Sequence record: OQ417976.1
DNA: 52,874 nt
DNA from: Mycobacterium phage prophiT46-1
Reading direction: 5' to 3' (one strand)
In this document: piece after piece, positions 1 to 8,885 of the stretch
Numbering within the stretch: position 1 is the first letter of the stretch
Layout of the letters: every line of letters starts with the position of its first letter
The notes under the pieces: model-generated
Databases searched by the model: none
Told to the model about the DNA's origin: nothing
What the model saw: the letters and a program-made list of their open reading frames with translations, nothing else
Position numbers and translations under genes: made by a program

Positions 1-24
1 CGGGTTCAATTCCCGGCAGCTCCA
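1..24 (+). tRNA. 3'-terminal fragment of a tRNA gene (T-arm plus acceptor strand); body is outside the window
   Basis: GGGTTCAATTCCC matches a T-stem/loop (T-loop TTCAATT fits TTCRANY), followed by a 7-nt acceptor strand and a discriminator A. No CCA is encoded. The identity of the tRNA cannot be determined from this fragment. Confidence 0.35.
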
Positions 25-25
25 C
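1..25. repeat. attL core (direct repeat, 3' end of a tRNA gene)
   Basis: CGGGTTCAATTCCCGGCAGCTCCAC recurs exactly at 52850..52874. It contains a T-loop-like TTCAATT flanked by GGG/CCC followed by an acceptor 3' strand CAGCTCCA; the tRNA body would lie upstream of the window. Confidence 0.7.
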
Positions 26-60
26 GGAAAACGGCAGGTCAACCGGTAGATTTTTACCGG

Positions 61-1197
61 ATGGCCTGCCGTCAACAGTTCCGTCAACATATTATTGATT
101 GCGTGGCATCACTTCGCACGCGATACCGGGGCGACGGCAGCCCCTATTTCTCGGTCCTGTACCGGCTCGACGGCAAGCAGACCTCCCTGTCAGTTAACGA
201 TCAGCAGGAAGCCGAATACGCCTGCGAGCTAATGAACCGCCTCGGTCCCGCGCGGGCGCTGGAGATACTGAAAGTCAGCAGAGCGCCCCGCACGAAGCTG
301 ACCGTCGACGGATGGATCCGGCACCACATCGACCACCTGACAGGCGTCGACAAACGCACCATCGAGGACTACAACCGGTACCTGCGTAACGACATAGGGC
401 CTGCGCTCGGACCGGTCCCGCTGGATGACCTCACACGGGACGACATCGCGGGGTGGGTGCTGCAGATGCAGGACGATGAAGCCAGCCCGAAGACCATCGC
501 GAACAAACACGGGTTCCTGTCAGGGGCGTTGGCCGGCGCGGTTGCTTCGGGGAAGCTGAAGGCCAACCCGGCCGCAGGTATCCGGTTGCCGCAGAGCCAC
601 GCCAAGGAAATGGTGTTCCTGACGCGCGATCAGTTCGCCCACCTGAACAGTCATGTGACCGAGCCGTGGCAGCCGTTCGTCGAATTCCTGGTCGCTTCTG
701 GCTGCCGCCTCTCAGAGGCCACAGCGCTGCGCCCTGACGACGTTGATCGGGATGCGGGAACCGTGAGGATCTGGCAGTCGTGGCGCCGCGGCGGTGGAGG
801 GTATCGACTCGCGCCACCGAAGACAGAGCGGTCAAAACGAACGATCAACGTAGGCAAGGCGACCTTGGACAAGCTGACCTACACGGGGGAGTGGTTGTTC
901 ACCAACCCCGGCCGAGGCCGACGCGCCGAGGGTGGCCCGGTTCGGCCACCGAATCTGCGGGCAAACGTGTGGGCGCCTGCTGTGCAGCGGGCCGCGCTGC
1001 CGCAGAGCCCGCGTATCCACGACCTGCGACACACCTGTGCATCGTGGATGATTCTGGCCGGCGTCCCGCTGCCGGTCATCCAACGCCATCTCGGCCACGA
1101 ATCCATACAGACGACCGTCGACCTGTACGGCCACATAGACCGATCAAGCGCGGAGGCTGCCGCCAACGCCATCGCGAACATGCTCGCTACGGGGTGA
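61..1197 (+). CDS. int: Tyrosine integrase (phage integrase family)
   Basis: 378 aa. The C-terminal catalytic signature is present: R in ...GCRLSEATALRP..., the HxxR box HDLRHTCASW, and ...LGHESIQTTVDLYGH with the catalytic Tyr. It lies adjacent to attL. Confidence 0.9.
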   Translation: MACRQQFRQHIIDCVASLRTRYRGDGSPYFSVLYRLDGKQTSLSVNDQQEAEYACELMNRLGPARALEILKVSRAPRTKLTVDGWIRHHIDHLTGVDKRTIEDYNRYLRNDIGPALGPVPLDDLTRDDIAGWVLQMQDDEASPKTIANKHGFLSGALAGAVASGKLKANPAAGIRLPQSHAKEMVFLTRDQFAHLNSHVTEPWQPFVEFLVASGCRLSEATALRPDDVDRDAGTVRIWQSWRRGGGGYRLAPPKTERSKRTINVGKATLDKLTYTGEWLFTNPGRGRRAEGGPVRPPNLRANVWAPAVQRAALPQSPRIHDLRHTCASWMILAGVPLPVIQRHLGHESIQTTVDLYGHIDRSSAEAAANAIANMLATG

Positions 1198-1233
1198 GCT
1201 GACCACGCAAAGTCGATGCGGCCGGTCTCACGG

Positions 1234-2112
1234 TCACTCGAATAATCCCGGCTCCGTGGGGCGGTCGGTCAGCGCCAGCAGCCGGTATGCCCATCGGCCA
1301 GGCTTACCGGTATTTCGGACTAGTCGCACTCTCTCGATCTGTGCTTGGACCGGCTTGTCGACGTGTCGAATGACAGCGTCGGAAAGCTCTGGGTCGTATA
1401 CGCCTTCGTAGTCGCGGCCCTGTGCTTCGAGATAGAAAATCCTCCGACGGGTCCGCATTCCATCGAGTCGGCCTTCGACAGGAATTACGTCGCGCTCGTA
1501 TTTGCCATCGAGCAGGTCCGTGTTGATGGTCGCCGCCTGATCGCGCGTCATCACCCCGCCCGTGAGGGCTCCCGAGGAGGTGCTGACCGTGAGATCTACG
1601 GCAGCGGCAGCCTGCACCGCTTCAACTACATCTTTGACAACATTGAGCAGCGCTCGATCGTGAGCTGCAAGTGGCGCCACCGCCTCCGGGTCTGCCGATT
1701 CGGGGAGTATATTGACAAGCTCGATTGCCGCCCGTTCTGCTGGTGTCTCCGTGTGTGAGACGAACAACTGAGGGTTGGCGATGTCCAGGTTTTCAAACCC
1801 GAACTCGATGCGCCTGCCTATCTGGCGACGCGGGTAGAGACGTGCTCGGTCTTTGTCAGACTCTTGGACGATGTTTGCTTGCGAGAGTGGATCATGTAAA
1901 TGCTTTCCCATCCGTGCGACCGCATTCTGCATGTGGCGCGCGACAGCAGACAGCACATCGGCGTCGATATCACGATTAACGTCGACCGCCAAGAATGCAG
2001 GTTTGCGGCGACTGCCGAACTTGGTATCAGCTGCGGTCAGTGAAGCTCGGGCGAGTTTGTCGAGCCATGAGTCACCGTCGATCTGTGCCTGAGCTTCCTC
2101 AAATCTGCTCAT
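1234..2112 (-). CDS. Hypothetical protein; distal gene of the leftward lysogeny operon (unknown function)
   Basis: 292-aa ORF. Its start overlaps the stop of the upstream gene by 4 nt (ATGA coupling). It is convergent with int. No recognisable motif was found. Confidence 0.6.
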   Translation of the reverse strand: MSRFEEAQAQIDGDSWLDKLARASLTAADTKFGSRRKPAFLAVDVNRDIDADVLSAVARHMQNAVARMGKHLHDPLSQANIVQESDKDRARLYPRRQIGRRIEFGFENLDIANPQLFVSHTETPAERAAIELVNILPESADPEAVAPLAAHDRALLNVVKDVVEAVQAAAAVDLTVSTSSGALTGGVMTRDQAATINTDLLDGKYERDVIPVEGRLDGMRTRRRIFYLEAQGRDYEGVYDPELSDAVIRHVDKPVQAQIERVRLVRNTGKPGRWAYRLLALTDRPTEPGLFE

Positions 2113-2621
2113 AGCGCCACCTCGATATATCCCTTGACTGCGCCTTCAATTATCTCACCGTCATCGCCCTTTACCGCGGACCAGGTGTCGTGCCAAACAT
2201 CGTCTTGTCCGGGGTAACACAGGAAGGCGTCAAGCTCTCCAGCAAGCGGTTGTATGCGTTCGAAGCCAAGGTACAGCGGCTCACCGACAACTACATCTTG
2301 AAGCGTGAGCATCCCAAAGACACGGTCCCTCTCGCGTCCGGTGTAGGAGCGCAGATGGTCCCAGCTACCCGGCTTGATCACGACATCAACATCGAATGGG
2401 GCATGAGCCTTCGCCGTGACGAACCCTCCGTCAACCCACAGTTGGCATGGACCGATGATCCGTTTAGCCAGCTCAGTGAACGTGATGAGTGACCCAAATA
2501 GCTCTTGCCTGCGGGCGGTGTTGGGTGCTCCGATGACGCATCGGTCGTGGACGTCATCCATGGTGCCAGTGTGACGTCCGGGTGGAAGTAGCCCCTGGCT
2601 AGTCCACTCGGGCAGGCTCAC
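2109..2621 (-). CDS. Hypothetical protein with Pol-beta-type nucleotidyltransferase-like motifs (ELFGS ... DVDVVI); middle gene of the leftward operon
   Basis: 170-aa ORF, coupled at both ends by 4-nt ATGA overlaps. It contains an hFGS motif followed by DhDh (FDVDVVI), but the spacing is longer than in minimal nucleotidyltransferases, so the fold assignment is tentative. Confidence 0.6.
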   Translation of the reverse strand: MSLPEWTSQGLLPPGRHTGTMDDVHDRCVIGAPNTARRQELFGSLITFTELAKRIIGPCQLWVDGGFVTAKAHAPFDVDVVIKPGSWDHLRSYTGRERDRVFGMLTLQDVVVGEPLYLGFERIQPLAGELDAFLCYPGQDDVWHDTWSAVKGDDGEIIEGAVKGYIEVAL

Positions 2622-3778
2622 CGATGTTGCCTCTCGCCCCGCTTGGCGGTCTTTCGTTGGTGGATATCGGGGCCGGATTGCGCTAACCGACTGATCGGAT
2701 CGCCTGATGCGCCCTCGGACACCTCATCCCCCTCCCTACCCTTTGCCGGACTACTTTGCCCGATTTCCGTACTACTGTCTCGGTTTTCGGTCTCGACGGG
2801 GTCACGGGCGTGTCCAAGATTGGACTCGGCAGCTCGCTGGGCGCCTCGGAACAACCCGCCGCTACCTATCGCGGGGTCAGCATCCTGGTCTTCGTTAGCT
2901 TGCGGCGATGAAGGGCGCCTCAAATCCTCGATCGACGTAACGTCTCTGCCGACGGTCGGCCCCAGCATCCACTTCGAAGGCTCCAACCCGAGGCGTTCGG
3001 CTGCGGCGACTCCATCTGGTTCCCACCACCAATGCGCCCGCCACGGCTCGTCCTCTTCATCAAACTCGGCGCCGGGATCCCAGGGGGGCGTCCAGGGGCG
3101 CCCGTAGGTGACATCGTTAGTCATCTGTTGAACGGCGTCGAGTTCGGATTGTGCTTTAGCGAAGGGGATCGCCCGTGCACGCGCATACCCGAGCACTAGG
3201 TTCAGCATGCGGTTGCGTGCTTGCACCCACTCGGCGAAAACAGCTTCGGCTGATAGAAACTCGCCGTCTGGCCCAACGCCGAGATTTGGGTCCGGGCGTC
3301 TACGAATCTCCCGAGGCGGTAGTGGCGGATCGCCCTCTTGAGCGGGCAATCCCGCTGCCTGCCGCAGACGTGCAGCAGTACGCCGAGCAGATTCTTTCTG
3401 CTGAATGAGATCCTGAAGTTCCTCGACTGCGTCCTCGCGGCCTACATCGCGCAGCTCATCCGCAGTGGCACCGACCACTAGAGCCATTCGAGCCAGGGTT
3501 ACGGCGGGAGCGCGCACAGGGACGCGAAGATCCGCCGTTTCTTGCCTGTACCCCTTGATGATCTGACGCCAGCGAGAGTCGGACATATCCGCAGCCCTTG
3601 CTGCACTGCGTACCGACAGCTTTGGCCGGAACTGGGTACGCAGACGTTCTATCAACTCCGCTTCAGGTGGCTGCGTTGGTTCGCTCACCTGCACAGTGTC
3701 ACGCCTAACGGGGTGCGAAGTCCATCGGGCGCACCTTTCGTGGACTTTCGCAATTACACGCTTGTGATATTCGAACAC
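2618..3778 (-). CDS. HTH-containing protein, candidate immunity repressor/regulator with a long acidic Trp-rich C-terminal region
   Basis: 386 aa. It is transcribed divergently from the early lytic operon. Helix-turn-helix-like segments are LSVRSAARAADMSDSRWRQIIKGY and VTLARMALVVGATADEL. The C-terminus contains EEDEPWRAHWWWEPDG. It is the first gene of the coupled three-gene operon. Confidence 0.6.
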   Translation of the reverse strand: MFEYHKRVIAKVHERCARWTSHPVRRDTVQVSEPTQPPEAELIERLRTQFRPKLSVRSAARAADMSDSRWRQIIKGYRQETADLRVPVRAPAVTLARMALVVGATADELRDVGREDAVEELQDLIQQKESARRTAARLRQAAGLPAQEGDPPLPPREIRRRPDPNLGVGPDGEFLSAEAVFAEWVQARNRMLNLVLGYARARAIPFAKAQSELDAVQQMTNDVTYGRPWTPPWDPGAEFDEEDEPWRAHWWWEPDGVAAAERLGLEPSKWMLGPTVGRDVTSIEDLRRPSSPQANEDQDADPAIGSGGLFRGAQRAAESNLGHARDPVETENRDSSTEIGQSSPAKGREGDEVSEGASGDPISRLAQSGPDIHQRKTAKRGERQHR

Positions 3779-3820
3779 GCCTGATCGCGATACGTTTCCG
3801 CGTCAATCCGAAGACGTGTG

Positions 3821-3858
3821 TTGACGTACGCAGATGTGCGCACTATCTTTATGCGTAC
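3821..3858 (+). promoter_or_regulatory. Putative early rightward promoter with operator-like palindromes
   Basis: A -35-like TTGACG (3821..3826) and a -10-like TATCTT (3844..3849) are separated by a 17-nt spacer. The spacer holds the perfect 8-bp palindrome GTGCGCAC (3836..3843), nested inside the inverted repeats GTACGCA (3826..3832) and TGCGTAC (3852..3858). The element lies in the 114-bp divergent intergenic region. Confidence 0.4.
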
Positions 3859-3892
3859 CGAATCACCTCGGTGTAAGCCTCAAGGAGAGTTC

Positions 3893-4618
3893 ATGAGCGC
3901 ACCGCAGCTCTTCACAAATGGGGAGTTCGAACTCCCCGTCCTCCCGGACGGCGACAGCTTCCGCGTAAACGGAATGGTCGTCGCCCGCCAGCTGGGATTC
4001 CGATACGCGGCCGACATGGTCCGCACCCTCGCCGATGACGAAAAGGTCTTCATCGAAAAGCCCAGCTCGCCCCAGCACGCGAATTTGCGTGCTGGGGGTG
4101 ACCGGGGGGTTTGGTTCGTTACCGAGCCTGGCTTCTATAGGGCTGTCGGCCAGCGCAATGTCAACCTGATCAAGGACCGCAAGGTTCGAGACGCCGTCGC
4201 CCGCTTTCAGCGGTGGGTGTTCCACGAAGTCGTCCCCGCGATGGTCCGCAGCGGTCAAGTCGACGAATGCATGCTGTCCGGCACTACCTGGTCATGGGTT
4301 GATGTGTCTTTCGAGATCAGGCAGCGCTACGGGCTGGACTACTCGCCGTCGCGGACAGTCCGGAATGCCCGTGCGGCCGGATGGCTACGCAACGACGGCG
4401 CCGTTCCGAAGCACGCGCATCGGGGCCAATTCTGGTTTACAGGCACCGCGTACCACCTTCTGCCGCATGCGCTTCCGGACCTGGTGTCCGAAATGCTGCC
4501 AAAGCTACAGCAGATCGGCGACCCACAGGCGAACCAGTACCAACTGAACATTCTTCCATCACTTCGCGCGGTACCGGGCGGCGAATCAATCAATGACCGA
4601 GGGGAGGTCGAGTTCTGA
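3893..4618 (+). CDS. Bro-N domain antirepressor-like protein
   Basis: The RBS AAGGAGAG precedes the ATG at 3893. The N-terminus (LFTNGEFELPV...FRVNGMVVARQLGF...VWFVTEPGFYRAV...RFQRWVFHEVVP) matches the Bro-N/AntA pattern. The 3818 start in the ORF track looks like a 5' extension. Confidence 0.7.
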   Translation: MSAPQLFTNGEFELPVLPDGDSFRVNGMVVARQLGFRYAADMVRTLADDEKVFIEKPSSPQHANLRAGGDRGVWFVTEPGFYRAVGQRNVNLIKDRKVRDAVARFQRWVFHEVVPAMVRSGQVDECMLSGTTWSWVDVSFEIRQRYGLDYSPSRTVRNARAAGWLRNDGAVPKHAHRGQFWFTGTAYHLLPHALPDLVSEMLPKLQQIGDPQANQYQLNILPSLRAVPGGESINDRGEVEF

Positions 4619-4944
4619 TGGCGCAGAAGAGAATCAGTGAGTACGGCGTTTGGCAGGAACTCCGTGTCATTCGCACCAAAGACGGCCAGAGTCTGGCCGA
4701 GTTGTCCCGCACAAGCGGCATTAGCTTGGGCTACCTGTCTGATCTGGAAGGTGGACATCGCTGGCCGAATCCAACTCAGGTCAAGAAGGTCGCACTCGCC
4801 CTGAACTGCCCAGTCTCCGTTCTGGAGCGAACTCGAAGTGTCACTAGCGACGGAGAATCGGTCGCTTTGCGTGAACTGATCCGTGACGTTGTGCGCGAGG
4901 TGCTCGACGAACGTGCGGTCGAAAAGCTGGTGGTGTCGGCATGA
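4618..4944 (+). CDS. XRE-family HTH transcriptional regulator (Cro/C1-type)
   Basis: 108 aa. The HTH is QSLAELSRTSGISLGYLSDLEGG. The gene is coupled to the upstream gene by an ATGA overlap. Confidence 0.75.
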   Translation: MAQKRISEYGVWQELRVIRTKDGQSLAELSRTSGISLGYLSDLEGGHRWPNPTQVKKVALALNCPVSVLERTRSVTSDGESVALRELIRDVVREVLDERAVEKLVVSA

Positions 4945-5189
4945 CCGTGGCGACCTATCCGCTTGAGGAGGCGGCGGAACACTTCGGAAATTCGCCTGAA
5001 TGGCTCGCCCAACAGCTGAGGTCCGGGCGGTTCTCCGGGTACAAGGTCGGCCGGAAGTGGCGGATGTCCGATGCGGACATCGCCGATGCCCTGGAGAAGT
5101 GCCGTCGTGACGCGCGGCCTTCCGCGATCACGTCTGTCGGACCTCTGCTGAGTGCGACGGCGACAACACAGCGCCGATTCGCGTCTTAA
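4941..5189 (+). CDS. Excisionase-like / MerR-type HTH DNA-binding protein
   Basis: 82 aa. The small protein carries a winged-HTH-like segment (YKVGRKWRMSDADIADALE) and is coupled to the regulator gene. Confidence 0.55.
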   Translation: MTVATYPLEEAAEHFGNSPEWLAQQLRSGRFSGYKVGRKWRMSDADIADALEKCRRDARPSAITSVGPLLSATATTQRRFAS

Positions 5190-5281: not shown

Positions 5282-5653
5282 ATGCAACACCGTAGTTCTG
5301 CTCGTCCTACCCGTCTACTGATTGCCGCTGGTGTCGGCGCCACGGTGGCCGCGCTGGCCAGCCCAGCGCCCGCGCACGCCGATCCGGTCATCGACTACAC
5401 CGGCAAGACCGCGCCGACCGTGTGCGCGCTGCTGGACAGCACCCCGACATTCGGCGGGATCGCGGTCGTCGGGCAGCTGATCCATAACGACGGCCTCACC
5501 TACGAGGCGGCGGGCCGTGTCATCAAGCTCTCGATCGAAGCGTTCTGCCCGCGCCATGTCGCGTTGTGGAACCGGTTCGTGGACTCGGCGAACAGCCAAA
5601 CCCCCGACCACACACCCGCCGTTCCCGCACCCGCGCCCACTCGGGTCGCCTGA
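5282..5653 (+). CDS. Secreted protein with signal peptide (DUF732-like mycobacterial secreted protein)
   Basis: The RBS AAGGGAG precedes the ATG at 5282. The N-terminus (RLLIAAGVGATVAALASPAPAHA) is a typical Sec signal with an AxA cleavage site. The mature domain contains two Cys residues. Confidence 0.6.
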   Translation: MQHRSSARPTRLLIAAGVGATVAALASPAPAHADPVIDYTGKTAPTVCALLDSTPTFGGIAVVGQLIHNDGLTYEAAGRVIKLSIEAFCPRHVALWNRFVDSANSQTPDHTPAVPAPAPTRVA

Positions 5654-5862
5654 TGAGCACCGCCGTTGCCGAGTGCCCGCGTGAGGCGGTGCCGGAAACC
5701 TTGGACTGCCCGCGTGGTTGCGGATACCAGGTGCTCGCGAAACCCGTGACCGCCCAAGGCGTGTGGAATGCAGGGCCGTGGCGGATGCAGGTACATAACC
5801 GTGTCGCAGAGATTTTTGGGCGCTGCCCGGTGCCGCCGATGGTGGGGAAGGGGCAGCGCTGA
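5653..5862 (+). CDS. Hypothetical small Cys-containing protein
   Basis: Coupled by a TGATG overlap. 69 aa with CPRGCG. Confidence 0.4.
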   Translation: MSTAVAECPREAVPETLDCPRGCGYQVLAKPVTAQGVWNAGPWRMQVHNRVAEIFGRCPVPPMVGKGQR

Positions 5863-6194
5863 TGGGATTCGGACCCAACCCGGCTGATGTGCGTGCCGCA
5901 GAGGTCGCCGCGCAGGAGGCGCGCGACCGGCTCACGTCGAAACCGTTGACACCATTCGAAACTGAACTACTGGCCGTGCTCGGCGAAATCCGGGACGCGC
6001 TCAACGCAGCCGGAAACAGCGCTGGGGCTGTGACCGGACCAGGCGACGGCGGTGAAACGTCCCGCCGTCGCCAACCAAACGCGCCCGCCGCGCGTTCGAA
6101 ACAGTGCCCGTGCGGCCGGCAGGTCTACCTGGGCAGCGCTTCGGGTAAGTGGGTGCACATCGATGACGCCACACCTGCATGCGAGGTGGTCTGA
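5862..6194 (+). CDS. Hypothetical protein with C-terminal zinc-ribbon-like CPCG...C
   Basis: 110-aa ORF, translationally coupled. Confidence 0.5.
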   Translation: MGFGPNPADVRAAEVAAQEARDRLTSKPLTPFETELLAVLGEIRDALNAAGNSAGAVTGPGDGGETSRRRQPNAPAARSKQCPCGRQVYLGSASGKWVHIDDATPACEVV

Positions 6195-6395
6195 ATGCCT
6201 CGGCGTCCACCGCCGCCGGATACCGCGGACAAGATGTGGCGCGCTGCGGCGCTGCTGGCCGAGGTCAACCACGTGTACGGCGAAGACGTCCATTTCTCGT
6301 GGAGTGTTTTCGAGCTTCGGTTGACCGCGCAGCTGTTGGAGCATGCGCACGCGACGAGACGTAAGCCCAACGCCCGGAAACGGAAAACGTCATGA
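6195..6395 (+). CDS. Hypothetical protein
   Basis: 66 aa. The ATG follows the upstream stop by 1 nt. Confidence 0.4.
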   Translation: MPRRPPPPDTADKMWRAAALLAEVNHVYGEDVHFSWSVFELRLTAQLLEHAHATRRKPNARKRKTS

Positions 6396-6718
6396 CCGCC
6401 CCGGCGCTCGACGTCGATATCGCGGATCTGGTTGGCGCTATGCCGCAGCAGGTGTGCGAATGCGAACACTGCGAATCCCACCGACGCAGTGACGGACGCG
6501 GCTGTGACCGCACACCCAAGTGGGCGGTACGCATTCACACTCTGGCATGCATGTCCACGCTGGCTGAGCCGGACGAAATACAGGTGATGCTCTGTGGTCC
6601 GTGTTTCGAAGCCACTAACGCTTGGGCACTCGGTGCCGTCCATCGGCGCGTCAGGTGCGGATGCGGCAAGCGAGTTCAGGCTGTCGCCGATCTAGTTGGC
6701 CCGGTGGTGCACCTATGA
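6392..6718 (+). CDS. Hypothetical Cys-rich protein (CECEHCE...C...CGPC...CGCG)
   Basis: 108 aa with ATGA coupling. Several CxxC pairs suggest metal binding. Confidence 0.5.
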   Translation: MTAPALDVDIADLVGAMPQQVCECEHCESHRRSDGRGCDRTPKWAVRIHTLACMSTLAEPDEIQVMLCGPCFEATNAWALGAVHRRVRCGCGKRVQAVADLVGPVVHL

Positions 6719-7674
6719 CCGCGAACCCCACCACCGGAATCACCGGTATCTACACCAAACGCGATCCCGAGTTCCTGCAACCAGGTTCGGCGCAGTGGTC
6801 GAAGGTCATCACACCATCGAAAGTCGCTGCGATCCTCGGGGTTTCCCGCTACGAGTCGGCATACCGGCTATGGCACCGCATGCAGGGCATGGTCGATCCG
6901 GAACCACCCAAAGAGGTTTTCGACATCGGCCACGACCTCGAAGCGTATGCGGCGAACCGGTGGCGTCGCCGTAATCTCGGTTGGCGCCTTTCCGAAGGTG
7001 AAGTGCAGGTGCACATCGACCCCGACAAGTTCGGGTTTCCGTGCGTGGCCACAGTTGACCGGCGTGGTGTGCGGGGCCGATCGCGTCGGGTGGTCGAGTT
7101 CAAGTCGGCGCGGCACTTCAACGATCTGGAACTGTTCGGCGATGACCTGACCGGTGATTGCCCGGAGGACTATGCCGCTCAGGTGATGACGCAAATGTTG
7201 TTCACCGGCTGGACGGATCTGCCAGGGCATCTGCTGGTGGTGGGCCCGTACTACAACGAACGCATCTACGAAATCGAGTTCGACGCGAGCACCGCGGCGT
7301 GGATCCTCGATGAAGCGCAGAAGTTCTGGGGGCTGCTGAGGTCCGACAAGGTGCCGGACCTCGATAACACGGTGCACACCTACAGCTGCATCCGCGAGAT
7401 GAACCCCGAAATCGATGCGGACGCGACCACGGTCCTGGATGCGGCCGAGGCCCTGCAATTCGTCACGGCCAGACAGGAATTCGACCGCGCTGAAGAGAAC
7501 TATCAGGGCGCGAAAAACATGCTGATGAAACGCATGGAACGCGACAAGCGCGCCGAATTCGGCGGCGTCAAGATCGCGCACCGCCAGAAATCTAGAGGCT
7601 CGGTCGCGCTGCATGCGGCCAAAGGTGTCACCCCCGAACAAATCCGATTCCTGAACGGAGACAACCAGTCATGA
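6715..7674 (+). CDS. recE: RecE-like exonuclease (YqaJ / lambda-exonuclease-like viral recombinase nuclease)
   Basis: The N-terminus (WSKVITPSKVAAILGVSRYESAYRLW) matches the YqaJ family start. It lies immediately upstream of recT, as in the Che9c gp60/gp61 module. The internal ATG at 6715 is coupled to the preceding stop. Confidence 0.75.
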   Translation: MTANPTTGITGIYTKRDPEFLQPGSAQWSKVITPSKVAAILGVSRYESAYRLWHRMQGMVDPEPPKEVFDIGHDLEAYAANRWRRRNLGWRLSEGEVQVHIDPDKFGFPCVATVDRRGVRGRSRRVVEFKSARHFNDLELFGDDLTGDCPEDYAAQVMTQMLFTGWTDLPGHLLVVGPYYNERIYEIEFDASTAAWILDEAQKFWGLLRSDKVPDLDNTVHTYSCIREMNPEIDADATTVLDAAEALQFVTARQEFDRAEENYQGAKNMLMKRMERDKRAEFGGVKIAHRQKSRGSVALHAAKGVTPEQIRFLNGDNQS

Positions 7675-8885
7675 CCGAAACCACCACGAAGGTTGCCAAT
7701 GAACACGCCGCGCAGATCTGGCCGGATCCGTTGGTGCAGGCTGCCGGCGAGATAGCGGTGTCTGCGCCGCTCGGAACGGAGCTCGCGATCCACACAGGGC
7801 AAGCCCGATTCAGCGAAGCCCAACGCGCTGCATTGCGGCAGCTCGGTATCGAGGACGCTACCGACGGCGATCTGGACGTGTTCTTTCACGTCTGCCAAAC
7901 CACCGGTCTCGATCCGTTCCGCAAAGAGATCTACATGATCGGCCGCAACACCAAGGTCACCGAGTGGCTAGACAACGGAGAAGGCGGACGCCGCAAGGTT
8001 GAACGCTACGTCACGAAGTACACGATCCAAACCGGTATCGACGGGTTCCGCCGCAAGGTCCGCGAGTACGCGCACCAGAACGGCGACACGCTGGCTGTTG
8101 AAGGCCCGCTCTATTGCGGCGATGACGGGGAGTGGAAAGAGGTTTGGCCCGGCAAAACCCCGCCGGTCGCCGCGAAGTACACCGTCATCCGAAACGGCGA
8201 ACCATTCACCGCAGTAGCGCATTTCGATGAATTCGTGCAGACGAACAACGTCTACGAAGGCAGCGGCCAGGGGCGCAAGGTTGTCGGGCAGGAACCAAAC
8301 TCGATGTGGGCGAAGATGCCCCGCAACCAGATAGGCAAATGCGCGGAAGCCGCCGCATGCCGCCGCGCCTACCCGAATGAGTTCGCCGGCCTGATCCTCG
8401 CTGACGCGGCGCAGCCGACCGTGATCGACGGCGAGGTCGTCGAGGAACGCCAAGCCCCGCCGCAGCGCGCGAAGGGAGCGAGTCGACTCCGTGAGCGCGC
8501 AGCCGAAGCTGCCGCGCAGCAGAGTGCGCAAGCGGCAGAGACCGCGGGGGAACTCAGCGCCGACGCCCGCGAGAAGTGGCTCAAGGCGATGTTCGCCGCA
8601 CTGAACAAAGCCGAATGCACCGACCGCGACGAACAGCTCATCGTCATCGCCGGAATCCTCGGACGAACCGAGCTATTCGAGCACCGCGCCGACGTGACCG
8701 ACCAGGAACTACGCACCATCGTCAACGCCCTCAACGGCTTCAAGGAAGCGGGCAGGCTCGATCAGCAGATCAACGAGTACGTCAACGCCTGGTCGCTACG
8801 GGAAGCCGACGAACTCGACGCCGTCGCCAACACCGACACCGATGGCGAGCAAGGCGAACTCGGCCTCGAAAGCGACCAGAACTGA
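7671..8885 (+). CDS. recT: RecT-family ssDNA annealing recombinase
   Basis: 404 aa. It carries the conserved GLDPFRKEIYMIG region of RecT and is coupled to recE by an ATGA overlap. Confidence 0.8.
   Translation: MTETTTKVANEHAAQIWPDPLVQAAGEIAVSAPLGTELAIHTGQARFSEAQRAALRQLGIEDATDGDLDVFFHVCQTTGLDPFRKEIYMIGRNTKVTEWLDNGEGGRRKVERYVTKYTIQTGIDGFRRKVREYAHQNGDTLAVEGPLYCGDDGEWKEVWPGKTPPVAAKYTVIRNGEPFTAVAHFDEFVQTNNVYEGSGQGRKVVGQEPNSMWAKMPRNQIGKCAEAAACRRAYPNEFAGLILADAAQPTVIDGEVVEERQAPPQRAKGASRLRERAAEAAAQQSAQAAETAGELSADAREKWLKAMFAALNKAECTDRDEQLIVIAGILGRTELFEHRADVTDQELRTIVNALNGFKEAGRLDQQINEYVNAWSLREADELDAVANTDTDGEQGELGLESDQN

Follow-up and report, generated by a model that had tools for sequence, protein, structure and literature searches.

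A repressor-linked gene pair of a Mycobacterium abscessus prophage as a divergent member of the candidate defence system PDC-M63AB

What do the two genes that a mycobacterial prophage carries directly behind its repressor do for the lysogen? A gene that shares the transcript of a prophage repressor is produced in all lysogens and often determines which other phages are able to infect them. This has practical relevance in Mycobacterium abscessus, since susceptibility differs from strain to strain and limits phage therapy. We analysed a stretch of 52,874 nucleotides of the Mycobacterium phage prophiT46-1 (sequence record OQ417976.1; hereafter the window), in which three leftward genes, here called A, B and C, lie between the integrase gene and the rightward early genes. 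A previous reading of the letters alone (the sequence-only reading) had proposed that the three genes form an undescribed defence or exclusion system expressed in lysogeny. Judged by sequence, B and C are a divergent actinobacterial member of the PADLOC candidate system PDC-M63AB, following a gene that is very probably the immunity repressor. The full proposal, in which this repressor operon and its pair would act as a two-subunit, nucleic-acid-directed exclusion module, is one that we hold tentatively, as slightly less probable than its opposite.

The list of open reading frames (ORFs) contains the three leftward frames of 386, 170 and 292 amino acids (aa) from which the sequence-only reading started, on the minus strand at 2618..3778 (A), 2109..2621 (B) and 1234..2112 (C). 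An ATGA overlap had been claimed for both junctions; it is present between B and C, but the overlap between A and B is GTGA instead. Residues of A are numbered here from the 386-aa ORF. The genes and their junctions are as follows.

2618..3688 (probable) or 2618..3778 (longest), minus strand: gene A, very probably the immunity repressor; 356 aa from the GTG at 3688, 386 aa from the GTG at 3778
2109..2621, minus strand: gene B, 170 aa, GTG start; DUF6932 minimal nucleotidyltransferase (predicted), PADLOC PDC-M63A
1234..2112, minus strand: gene C, 292 aa, ATG start; partner protein, assigned to the actinobacterial branch of PDC-M63B
2618..2621, minus strand: overlap of the A stop and the B start; tcac on the plus strand, that is GTGA
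2109..2112, minus strand: overlap of the B stop and the C start; tcat on the plus strand, that is ATGA

The B-C pair and the PDC-M63 family

B and C are an obligate pair, in an arrangement beyond chance. Among the 94 fetched loci containing C, B lies directly upstream of C on the same strand in 93, the sole exception being a Xylanimonas locus in which B is disrupted. In addition, a C-family gene follows B directly, with overlapping codons, in all 65 untruncated IMG/VR contigs that were found with B, and these contigs span G+C contents of 0.38-0.67.

B belongs to the Pfam family DUF6932 (PF22014; 66.1 bits against a gathering cut-off of 27 bits, E 6e-18), with residues 4-168 aligned to model positions 1-141 of 142, and to phrog_9194. 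It also matches PADLOC PDC-M63A (PDLC04744) at 3.9e-11, an alignment that covers only residues 10-83. The AlphaFold model of B, built on 23 homologues, has a predicted local distance difference test score (pLDDT) of 94 and shows a minimal Pol-beta nucleotidyltransferase fold, in which the order of strands and helices fits hG[GS]...DhDh...D. The elements that define the superfamily, hG[GS]-x(9-13)-DhDh and a third acidic residue on a later strand, were found in B: the glycine motif is G65-G66, D77xD79 follows 10 residues later, and D131 supplies the third carboxylate.

2382..2393, minus strand: predicted metal-binding motif DVDV of B (residues 77-80; D77 and D79), from the family alignment and the model
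2229..2231, minus strand: predicted third carboxylate of B, D131, from the family alignment and the model

The positions invariant in the 23 B sequences include M1, P4, G15, H17, W62, G65, D77, D79 and D131, and among the mobile copies of B, G65, D77, D79 and D131 are invariant. B is thus modelled with an intact GG...DxD...D site and is a predicted nucleotidyltransferase. The Pol-beta-like hFGS and DhDh motifs named in the sequence-only reading were right as to the fold and the DhDh (DVDV), but the hFGS (ELFGS, residues 40-44) is not the glycine motif. The nearest structural relatives of B are minimal nucleotidyltransferases, including MNT antitoxins (1ylq, HI0073, 8xeh, 7ae2, 5yep). Searches of the PDB sequences with B and with the B family profile gave nothing meaningful, and full-text literature searches for DUF6932 returned nothing.

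C matched no sequence family in Pfam, PHROG, NCBIfam or PADLOC and no PDB sequence, which agrees with the previous description of a distal protein devoid of recognisable domains; to this, the structural model adds an oligonucleotide-binding (OB) fold. The NCBIfam matches were noise only, and the C family profile gave nothing meaningful against the PDB sequences. A weak PADLOC match of C to ThsB/TIR (E 0.055, with no stretch passing alone) was discarded as chance. The 18 close homologues of C are all actinobacterial, and a profile search among 1.84 billion proteins found relatives in 228 cluster representatives, nearly all of about 300 aa. The model of C has a pLDDT of 88, and the OB fold forms its C-terminus.

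1264..1506, minus strand: C-terminal OB-fold domain of C (residues 203-283), from the model
1435..1473, minus strand: GRLDGMRTRRRIFYLE, the most conserved stretch of the C family (G214-F226), with the basic RTRRR loop between beta1 and beta2

The near-invariant positions among 76 diverse members of the family (L200, G214, G218, R223, F226, G237 and L278) all lie in or beside the OB fold, and the conservation is centred on the basic loop. Foldseek comparison of the C model with the PDB gave OB-fold matches only, none of them below E 1e-3. The OB fold with its basic loop provides the first structural handle on this partner.

The C of the window has no PDC-M63B match at E<=0.1, and its assignment comes through its relatives. 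The PADLOC PDC-M63B hidden Markov models (HMMs) are matched by 9 of the 76 diverse C-family members (best 2.6e-13). In addition, hhalign gave a full-length alignment of the profile of this family to the partner protein of Erwinia phage vB_EhrS_59 (probability 90%, E 1.4e-6), a clear PDC-M63B (1.6e-43) that adjoins a clear PDC-M63A (1.9e-31). The gene order of PDC-M63AB (adjacent, on the same strand, M63A before M63B) is also that of the window. PDC stands for 'phage defence candidate', a status given because homologues are embedded in BREX, DISARM and type I restriction-modification (RM) loci, and PDC-M63, cassette CAS_00189, was left untested by its authors (Payne et al., 10.1101/2024.01.29.577857). 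The locus therefore can no longer be called undescribed, since B is DUF6932/PDC-M63A, the C family is linked to PDC-M63B and the corresponding genes of the prophage prophi58-1, introduced below, are already labelled; the statement that no known family matches convincingly is, in view of the DUF6932 and PDC-M63A matches, wrong for B.

The structural kinship of B opens another explanation of the pair. Its closest structural relatives are the MNT antitoxins of HEPN-MNT pairs, and the gene order and overlapping codons mirror MNT-HEPN, as would be expected if B and C were a toxin-antitoxin or addiction module resembling MntA-HepT of type VII, in which B would nucleotidylate or bind C, and C, once freed, would coat essential nucleic acid and block growth. 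Metagenomic actinobacterial loci with a small helix-turn-helix (HTH) regulator ahead of the pair and flanking insertion sequence (IS) elements fit such a module as well. However, C combines an alpha/beta N-terminal region with an OB fold and has no HEPN domain, Rx4-6H motif or invariant catalytic residue, and the catalytic Asp of B is lost in clades in which C is intact. Moreover, C is intact in the Xylanimonas locus with the disrupted B, and one viral contig has an intact B with a split C, so neither gene looks lethal alone. We consider a toxin-antitoxin module unlikely.

An intact triad in the fold of B and an oligonucleotide-binding fold in C would also suit nucleotide or oligonucleotide signalling, either with a CBASS-like signal from B that activates C or with a Hailong-like oligonucleotide that C holds until phage nucleases free it. 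For the latter, Hailong sets a precedent, with a nucleotidyltransferase and a DNA-gated partner (PMC13434031). The combination of a SMODS cyclase and a recognised effector that defines CBASS was not found here, and we rate signalling of either kind as very improbable.

The probable repressor and its operon

The operon that contains the pair converges with int, a tyrosine integrase gene at 61..1197 on the plus strand, and diverges from the rightward early genes, which begin at 3818 or 3893 and encode a Bro-N/Ant-like antirepressor, an HTH_3 protein and an excisionase-like HTH_17 protein. Both orientations had been read correctly and are seen in the ORF map. There is no gap between the three genes, and no promoter-like site was predicted on the minus strand. 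The codon overlaps that join B and C to A lead us to expect a common lysogenic promoter, as previously supposed, with all three genes co-expressed in lysogens from the repressor promoter. The G+C content of B-C (0.56-0.60) is below that of the surroundings. Scans for Rfam families, tRNA genes and tandem repeats revealed neither RNA elements nor repeats in association with the operon, and no transmembrane segment was found in A, B or C.

At the very start of the window (1-45), cgggttcaattcccggcagctccac resembles the 3' end of a tRNA-like gene; a complete tRNA or transfer-messenger RNA (tmRNA) gene was not found in the window by ARAGORN. The prophage prophiGD21-3, of cluster MabG, is integrated at attB-11, inside the host tmRNA gene (Dedrick et al. 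2021, PMC8092301), and the tRNA-like 3' end is consistent with this published site. That paper maps prophiGD21-3 and has no discussion of its genes 2-4. We are highly confident in the claims of identity and of context, among them that A-B-C is a leftward, lysogenic operon of an M. abscessus MabG prophage.

Gene A is very probably the immunity repressor, a role that had been raised on account of its HTH-like segments. The assignment draws on a conserved HTH domain, homology to annotated repressors, divergence from the Ant/HTH/Xis block, a swap of the immunity segment, a pair of inverted 15-mers and the annotation of prophi58-1.

3404..3685, minus strand: N-terminal DNA-binding domain of A (residues 32-125), from an alignment of 21 homologues
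3551..3619, minus strand: helix-turn-helix LSVRSAARAADMSDSRWRQIIKG of A, consensus LSVRxAAxxAGISDSRWRQIIKG
2660..2701, minus strand: C-terminal tail motif DPISRLAQSGPDIH of A (residues 360-373), conserved in genes upstream of B

In the alignment of the 21 homologues, S66, R69, W70, Q72, I73 and G76 of the HTH are nearly invariant, and one homologue of A carries Pfam HTH_31. By tblastn, residues 1-129 match annotated immunity repressors of the Gordonia phages Squiddly (64%), TinyDot, CheeseTouch and Holliday and of M. abscessus prophi102-2, and residues 178-263 match the repressors of the BaxterFox group. The N-terminal HTH domain would set the immunity specificity and is followed by a middle domain and a disordered tail. 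A is thereby an HTH protein that diverges from the early lytic genes and varies with the immunity type, the features by which a repressor is recognised in sequence. Comparison of A with the PDB sequences gave nothing meaningful, and weak matches to lambda integrase (E about 0.01) were discarded as chance.

Most homologues of A begin at 'MSEPTQPPEA', which corresponds to GTG 3688, and an NCBI protein with 97% identity to A is 356 aa long with this same start. Because of these homologue starts, and because a candidate operator lies inside the 5' extension of the 386-aa ORF, the true start is probably GTG 3688, with the 386-aa ORF over-extended. The 341-aa start annotated in prophi58-1 was rejected as a guide, since the N-terminal halves of the two proteins are unrelated.

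The M. abscessus prophage prophi58-1 (MW584168) is 98.5% identical to the first 5.2 kb of the window over 87% of this length, and its genes 2, 3 and 4 appear in GenBank as 'hypothetical protein', 'nucleotidyltransferase' and 'immunity repressor'. By blastn, the two align at 98% identity over 1-3298 and at 97-98% from 3938 onward, with no alignment between, and by tblastn only residues 166-386 of A are common to both. The unalignable stretch has the appearance of a classic immunity-region swap. The C-terminal 220 residues of A and B-C, in contrast to the swapped half, were inherited as a single block in the window and in prophi58-1. The segment of prophi58-1 (3299-5032) is about 1.1 kb longer, with an extra cro-like HTH gene and a different antirepressor; the first rightward gene of the window is Ant-like.

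The pattern ATCAC-N4-GTGTAA has two matches in the 52.9-kb window, against 0.43 expected. The two sites lie in inverted orientation on either side of the divergent promoter region, both within the swapped immunity segment, and we regard them as candidate repressor operators.

3299..3937, no strand: immunity segment differing from prophi58-1; comprises the half of A that binds DNA, the regulatory region between the divergent genes and the beginning of the first rightward gene
3754..3768, minus strand: candidate operator ATCACAAGCGTGTAA, an ATCAC-N4-GTGTAA match that also came up in the inverted-repeat search
3862..3876, plus strand: second copy of the candidate operator, ATCACCTCGGTGTAA, just 5' of the ribosome-binding site and ATG 3893 of the first rightward gene
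3821-3849, strand not stated: promoter-like TTGACG-17-TATCTT, from promoter prediction

The tail of the repressor suggests a closer tie to the pair. In four lineages of Mycobacteriales prophages (the M. abscessus window, Prescottella equi, Gordonia alkaliphila and one IMG/VR contig), the gene that precedes B encodes the motif [IL]xx[LIM]A[QK][SA]GPxI[HY] at a distance of 13-18 residues from the end of the protein; in their N-terminal HTH domains and the rest of their tails, these proteins are unalignable among the lineages. The motif is absent from all others of 12,247 ORFs, and the third positions of its codons vary synonymously. This suggests that, in the Mycobacteriales clade, the repressor tail may be functionally linked to B-C.

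Such a link would be natural if the pair were an accessory of the lysis-lysogeny switch, with B and C sensing or modifying the repressor or modulating induction, much as RexA of lambda acts on the CI-Cro switch. The pair is linked to repressor genes across phyla, it travels in Mycobacteriales with a selected tail motif despite unrelated HTH domains, and it shares a single inherited block with the C-terminal 220 residues of A. However, repressor-free pairs are present at an Amycolatopsis site, in an Arthrobacter island and, reportedly, in BREX/RM loci, and the CI-type repressors that stand upstream of the pair in Proteobacteria lack the tail motif. A role as switch accessory is, in our judgement, quite improbable.

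Distribution and possible function of the pair

In temperate phages of both Actinobacteria and Proteobacteria, the pair is found repeatedly just downstream of a repressor of CI/LexA type. The 47 unique upstream neighbours in viral contigs include carriers of HTH_3 (19), Peptidase_S24 (15), HTH_31 (14) and Phage_CI_repr (6). In coliphage mEpX1 (NC_019709), the order is cII, a cro-like gene, PR, cI, gp42, gp41, nutL and N, with gp42/gp41 as the pair, and Erwinia phage vB_EhrS_59 has the order cI-M63A-M63B-...-N. In both phages the pair, annotated as hypothetical, occupies the slot in which lambda carries rexA and rexB. The mEpX1 papers contain nothing on gp42/gp41, and this phage would be a convenient experimental model for the pair. 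Gordonia phage Holliday has its immunity repressor as g54, followed by the DUF6932-like g53 and by g52 (hhalign probability 95% to the C family), and the P. equi and G. alkaliphila prophages have the order HTH gene, B, C, int.

MabG prophages differ in the cargo that they carry between int and the repressor, and this slot is a hot spot of accessory genes: prophiGD03-1, a MabG prophage with the same integrase, has unrelated genes there. This variability bears out the previous view of a cargo position between int and the immunity region. The slot of prophiGD03-1 (1188-4695) holds two genes for hypothetical proteins, besides those for an esterase and an HTH protein, and its repressor is small (148 aa).

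The pair also occurs outside the repressor context. A single allele was counted in 99 of 5,426 complete genomes of E. coli (1.8%), always chromosomal and annotated only as 'DUF6932 family protein' and 'hypothetical protein'. The copy of Arthrobacter oryzae (CP132204) adjoins GmrSD and a PLD/DEAD-helicase/DUF3427 gene, which gives the locus the look of a defence island; in the stretch at 5576-8272, the pair is followed by a 163-aa gene and a 277-aa HTH_3 gene. Metagenomic actinobacterial contigs carry an 82-88 aa gene of the GntR-type winged-helix class, the pair and then a DDE transposase, an order which suggests an autonomous, IS-associated three-gene module. An unannotated mycobacterial pair is hereby tied to a candidate system found from Actinobacteria to E. 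coli.

The PDC-M63 nomination, the Arthrobacter neighbours, the variable MabG cargo and the low G+C content of B-C incline us toward defence, although a defence or exclusion role, taken by itself, still falls a little short of an even chance. In the mechanism that we propose, B and C would be made in lysogens from the repressor promoter and would together form a two-subunit, nucleic-acid-directed nucleotidyltransferase. Minimal nucleotidyltransferases usually need a partner for substrate binding, and it is this need, together with the OB fold and conserved basic loop of C, that leads to the two-subunit model. The OB fold would bind single-stranded nucleic acid, be it invading or replicating phage DNA or RNA or a tRNA-like 3' end, and C would either present the bound nucleic acid to the nucleotidyltransferase B or be controlled by B. 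The resident prophage would profit, since superinfecting phages would be excluded, either abortively or through a block of replication. The mechanism in this specific form is on the unlikely side.

Several observations weigh against this proposal. As for C, nothing known matched its first ~200 residues in the Foldseek search with the model, and the 76 diverse members share no invariant residue of catalytic type. Nucleic-acid binding by C is predicted only from its modelled fold and basic loop; OB folds also bind metals and sugars, and the top structural match of the OB fold of C is SilF, which is metal-binding. As for B, the Arthrobacter copy has lost all three carboxylates, yet it is coupled to an intact C, and D77 is replaced by G or S in 64 of the 94 fetched B proteins, all of them chromosomal copies of Pseudonocardiaceae. 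The only experiment that we found is a deletion of the prophage PDC-M63AB of E. coli NILS69, after which susceptibility to 10 phages was unchanged. The claim of a defence or exclusion system thus stands insofar as the family was independently flagged as a candidate, but the sole test of a homologue was negative and the copies in Pseudonocardiaceae are not in phages.

A single syntenic site holds the pair in Pseudonocardiaceae (Amycolatopsis, Saccharomonospora, Prauserella and others). The flanks of this site can be aligned across dozens of species and carry genes for a GDSL lipase, an OmpA-family protein and a SARP/NB-ARC/TPR regulator as well as ectD and ectC, and the site is neither a phage nor a defence island. 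These B proteins lack about 12 C-terminal residues. The pair is nevertheless under purifying selection, with a median ratio of nonsynonymous to synonymous substitution rates (dN/dS) of 0.27 for B and 0.17 for C. The loss of D77 under purifying selection and the losses in the Arthrobacter B indicate that the first catalytic Asp is dispensable for whatever retains these genes, and the Pseudonocardiaceae pattern looks more like a cellular function, or a non-catalytic B, than like typical patchy defence.

One account of this pattern is that the pair serves cellular nucleic-acid metabolism, such as repair, end-processing or tRNA handling, and was captured by phages as a moron, any defence being incidental or absent. 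Vertical, syntenic inheritance under purifying selection in a housekeeping-type neighbourhood speaks for this account, as does the E. coli NILS69 test, in which no defence was seen. Outside Pseudonocardiaceae, however, the pair is patchily distributed and mobile, occurring in prophages, in IS-flanked loci, in a defence island and in 1.8% of E. coli genomes; the family is rare, at 228 cluster representatives in 1.84 billion proteins; and its steady placement behind prophage repressors is typical of lysogenic-conversion or exclusion cargo. A cellular role as the explanation for the whole family is rather unlikely. If the pair is no exclusion system, the conserved chromosomal copies would point to a cellular role for a nucleotidyltransferase-like protein.

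The exclusion reading can also be carried further. In its boldest form, the pair would be a new mechanistic class of prophage immunity that fills the 'rex slot' across phyla, a two-subunit nucleotidyltransferase whose OB-fold subunit recognises single-stranded nucleic-acid ends of incoming or replicating phages. In Mycobacteriales prophages it would be tethered to the repressor by the tail motif and would stand guard by reading both the repressor state and the invader, and the Pseudonocardiaceae copies would be a domesticated, non-enzymatic offshoot. We regard this extended version as distinctly improbable. Should the pair prove to be an exclusion system, it would represent a new enzymatic logic for prophage-encoded immunity.

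Comparison with known systems

The sequence-only reading had likened the locus to MNT/HEPN, AbiE/MenT and CBASS, a resemblance that breaks down at the defining features of the partners. In common with MNT-HEPN of type VII, a small nucleotidyltransferase gene comes first and is tightly coupled to a larger partner, and B resembles the MNT antitoxins; C, however, is not a HEPN protein, with no Pfam HEPN match and no conserved Rx4-6H. AbiE/MenAT and the CBASS CD-NTases are likewise conflict systems built on the Pol-beta nucleotidyltransferase superfamily, whereas neither an AbiEii/DUF1814 nor a MenT or SMODS match was found with Pfam and PADLOC (for AbiE/MenAT at E<=0.1), and the partners are unrelated.

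Hailong (HalA/HalB) is likewise a two-gene system that combines a nucleotidyltransferase with a protein binding single-stranded oligonucleotides (PMC13434031). Nevertheless, C is soluble and HalA a transmembrane ion channel, the two genes come in the opposite order, and no structural or sequence link to HalB was seen.

With RexA/RexB of lambda, the pair has in common the slot and the presumed expression logic, as in mEpX1 and Erwinia phage 59, where the pair lies between cI and nutL/N, behind the repressor on its strand, and the status of two-gene cargo dispensable for lytic growth. The likeness is confined to genomic position: B and C have no Rex match in Pfam or PADLOC, RexB resides in the membrane whereas no transmembrane segment was found in B or C, and the lambda pair is further set apart by the nucleotidyltransferase fold of B and the OB fold of C.

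The closest comparison is with PDC-M63AB itself, a bioinformatic candidate that has no mechanism and one test, which was negative. The present analysis connects the actinobacterial pair with PDC-M63, shows its placement in the rex slot across phyla, and adds to the candidate an OB fold in the partner, a tail motif in the repressor and a chromosomal lineage that has become degenerate. As in other PDC-M63AB loci, the window has two genes on the same strand with overlapping codons, encoding proteins of about 150-170 aa and about 300 aa. It differs in that its C has diverged too far for any PDC-M63B HMM, and in that the pair is codon-overlapped with the repressor gene, whose tail carries a clade-specific motif.

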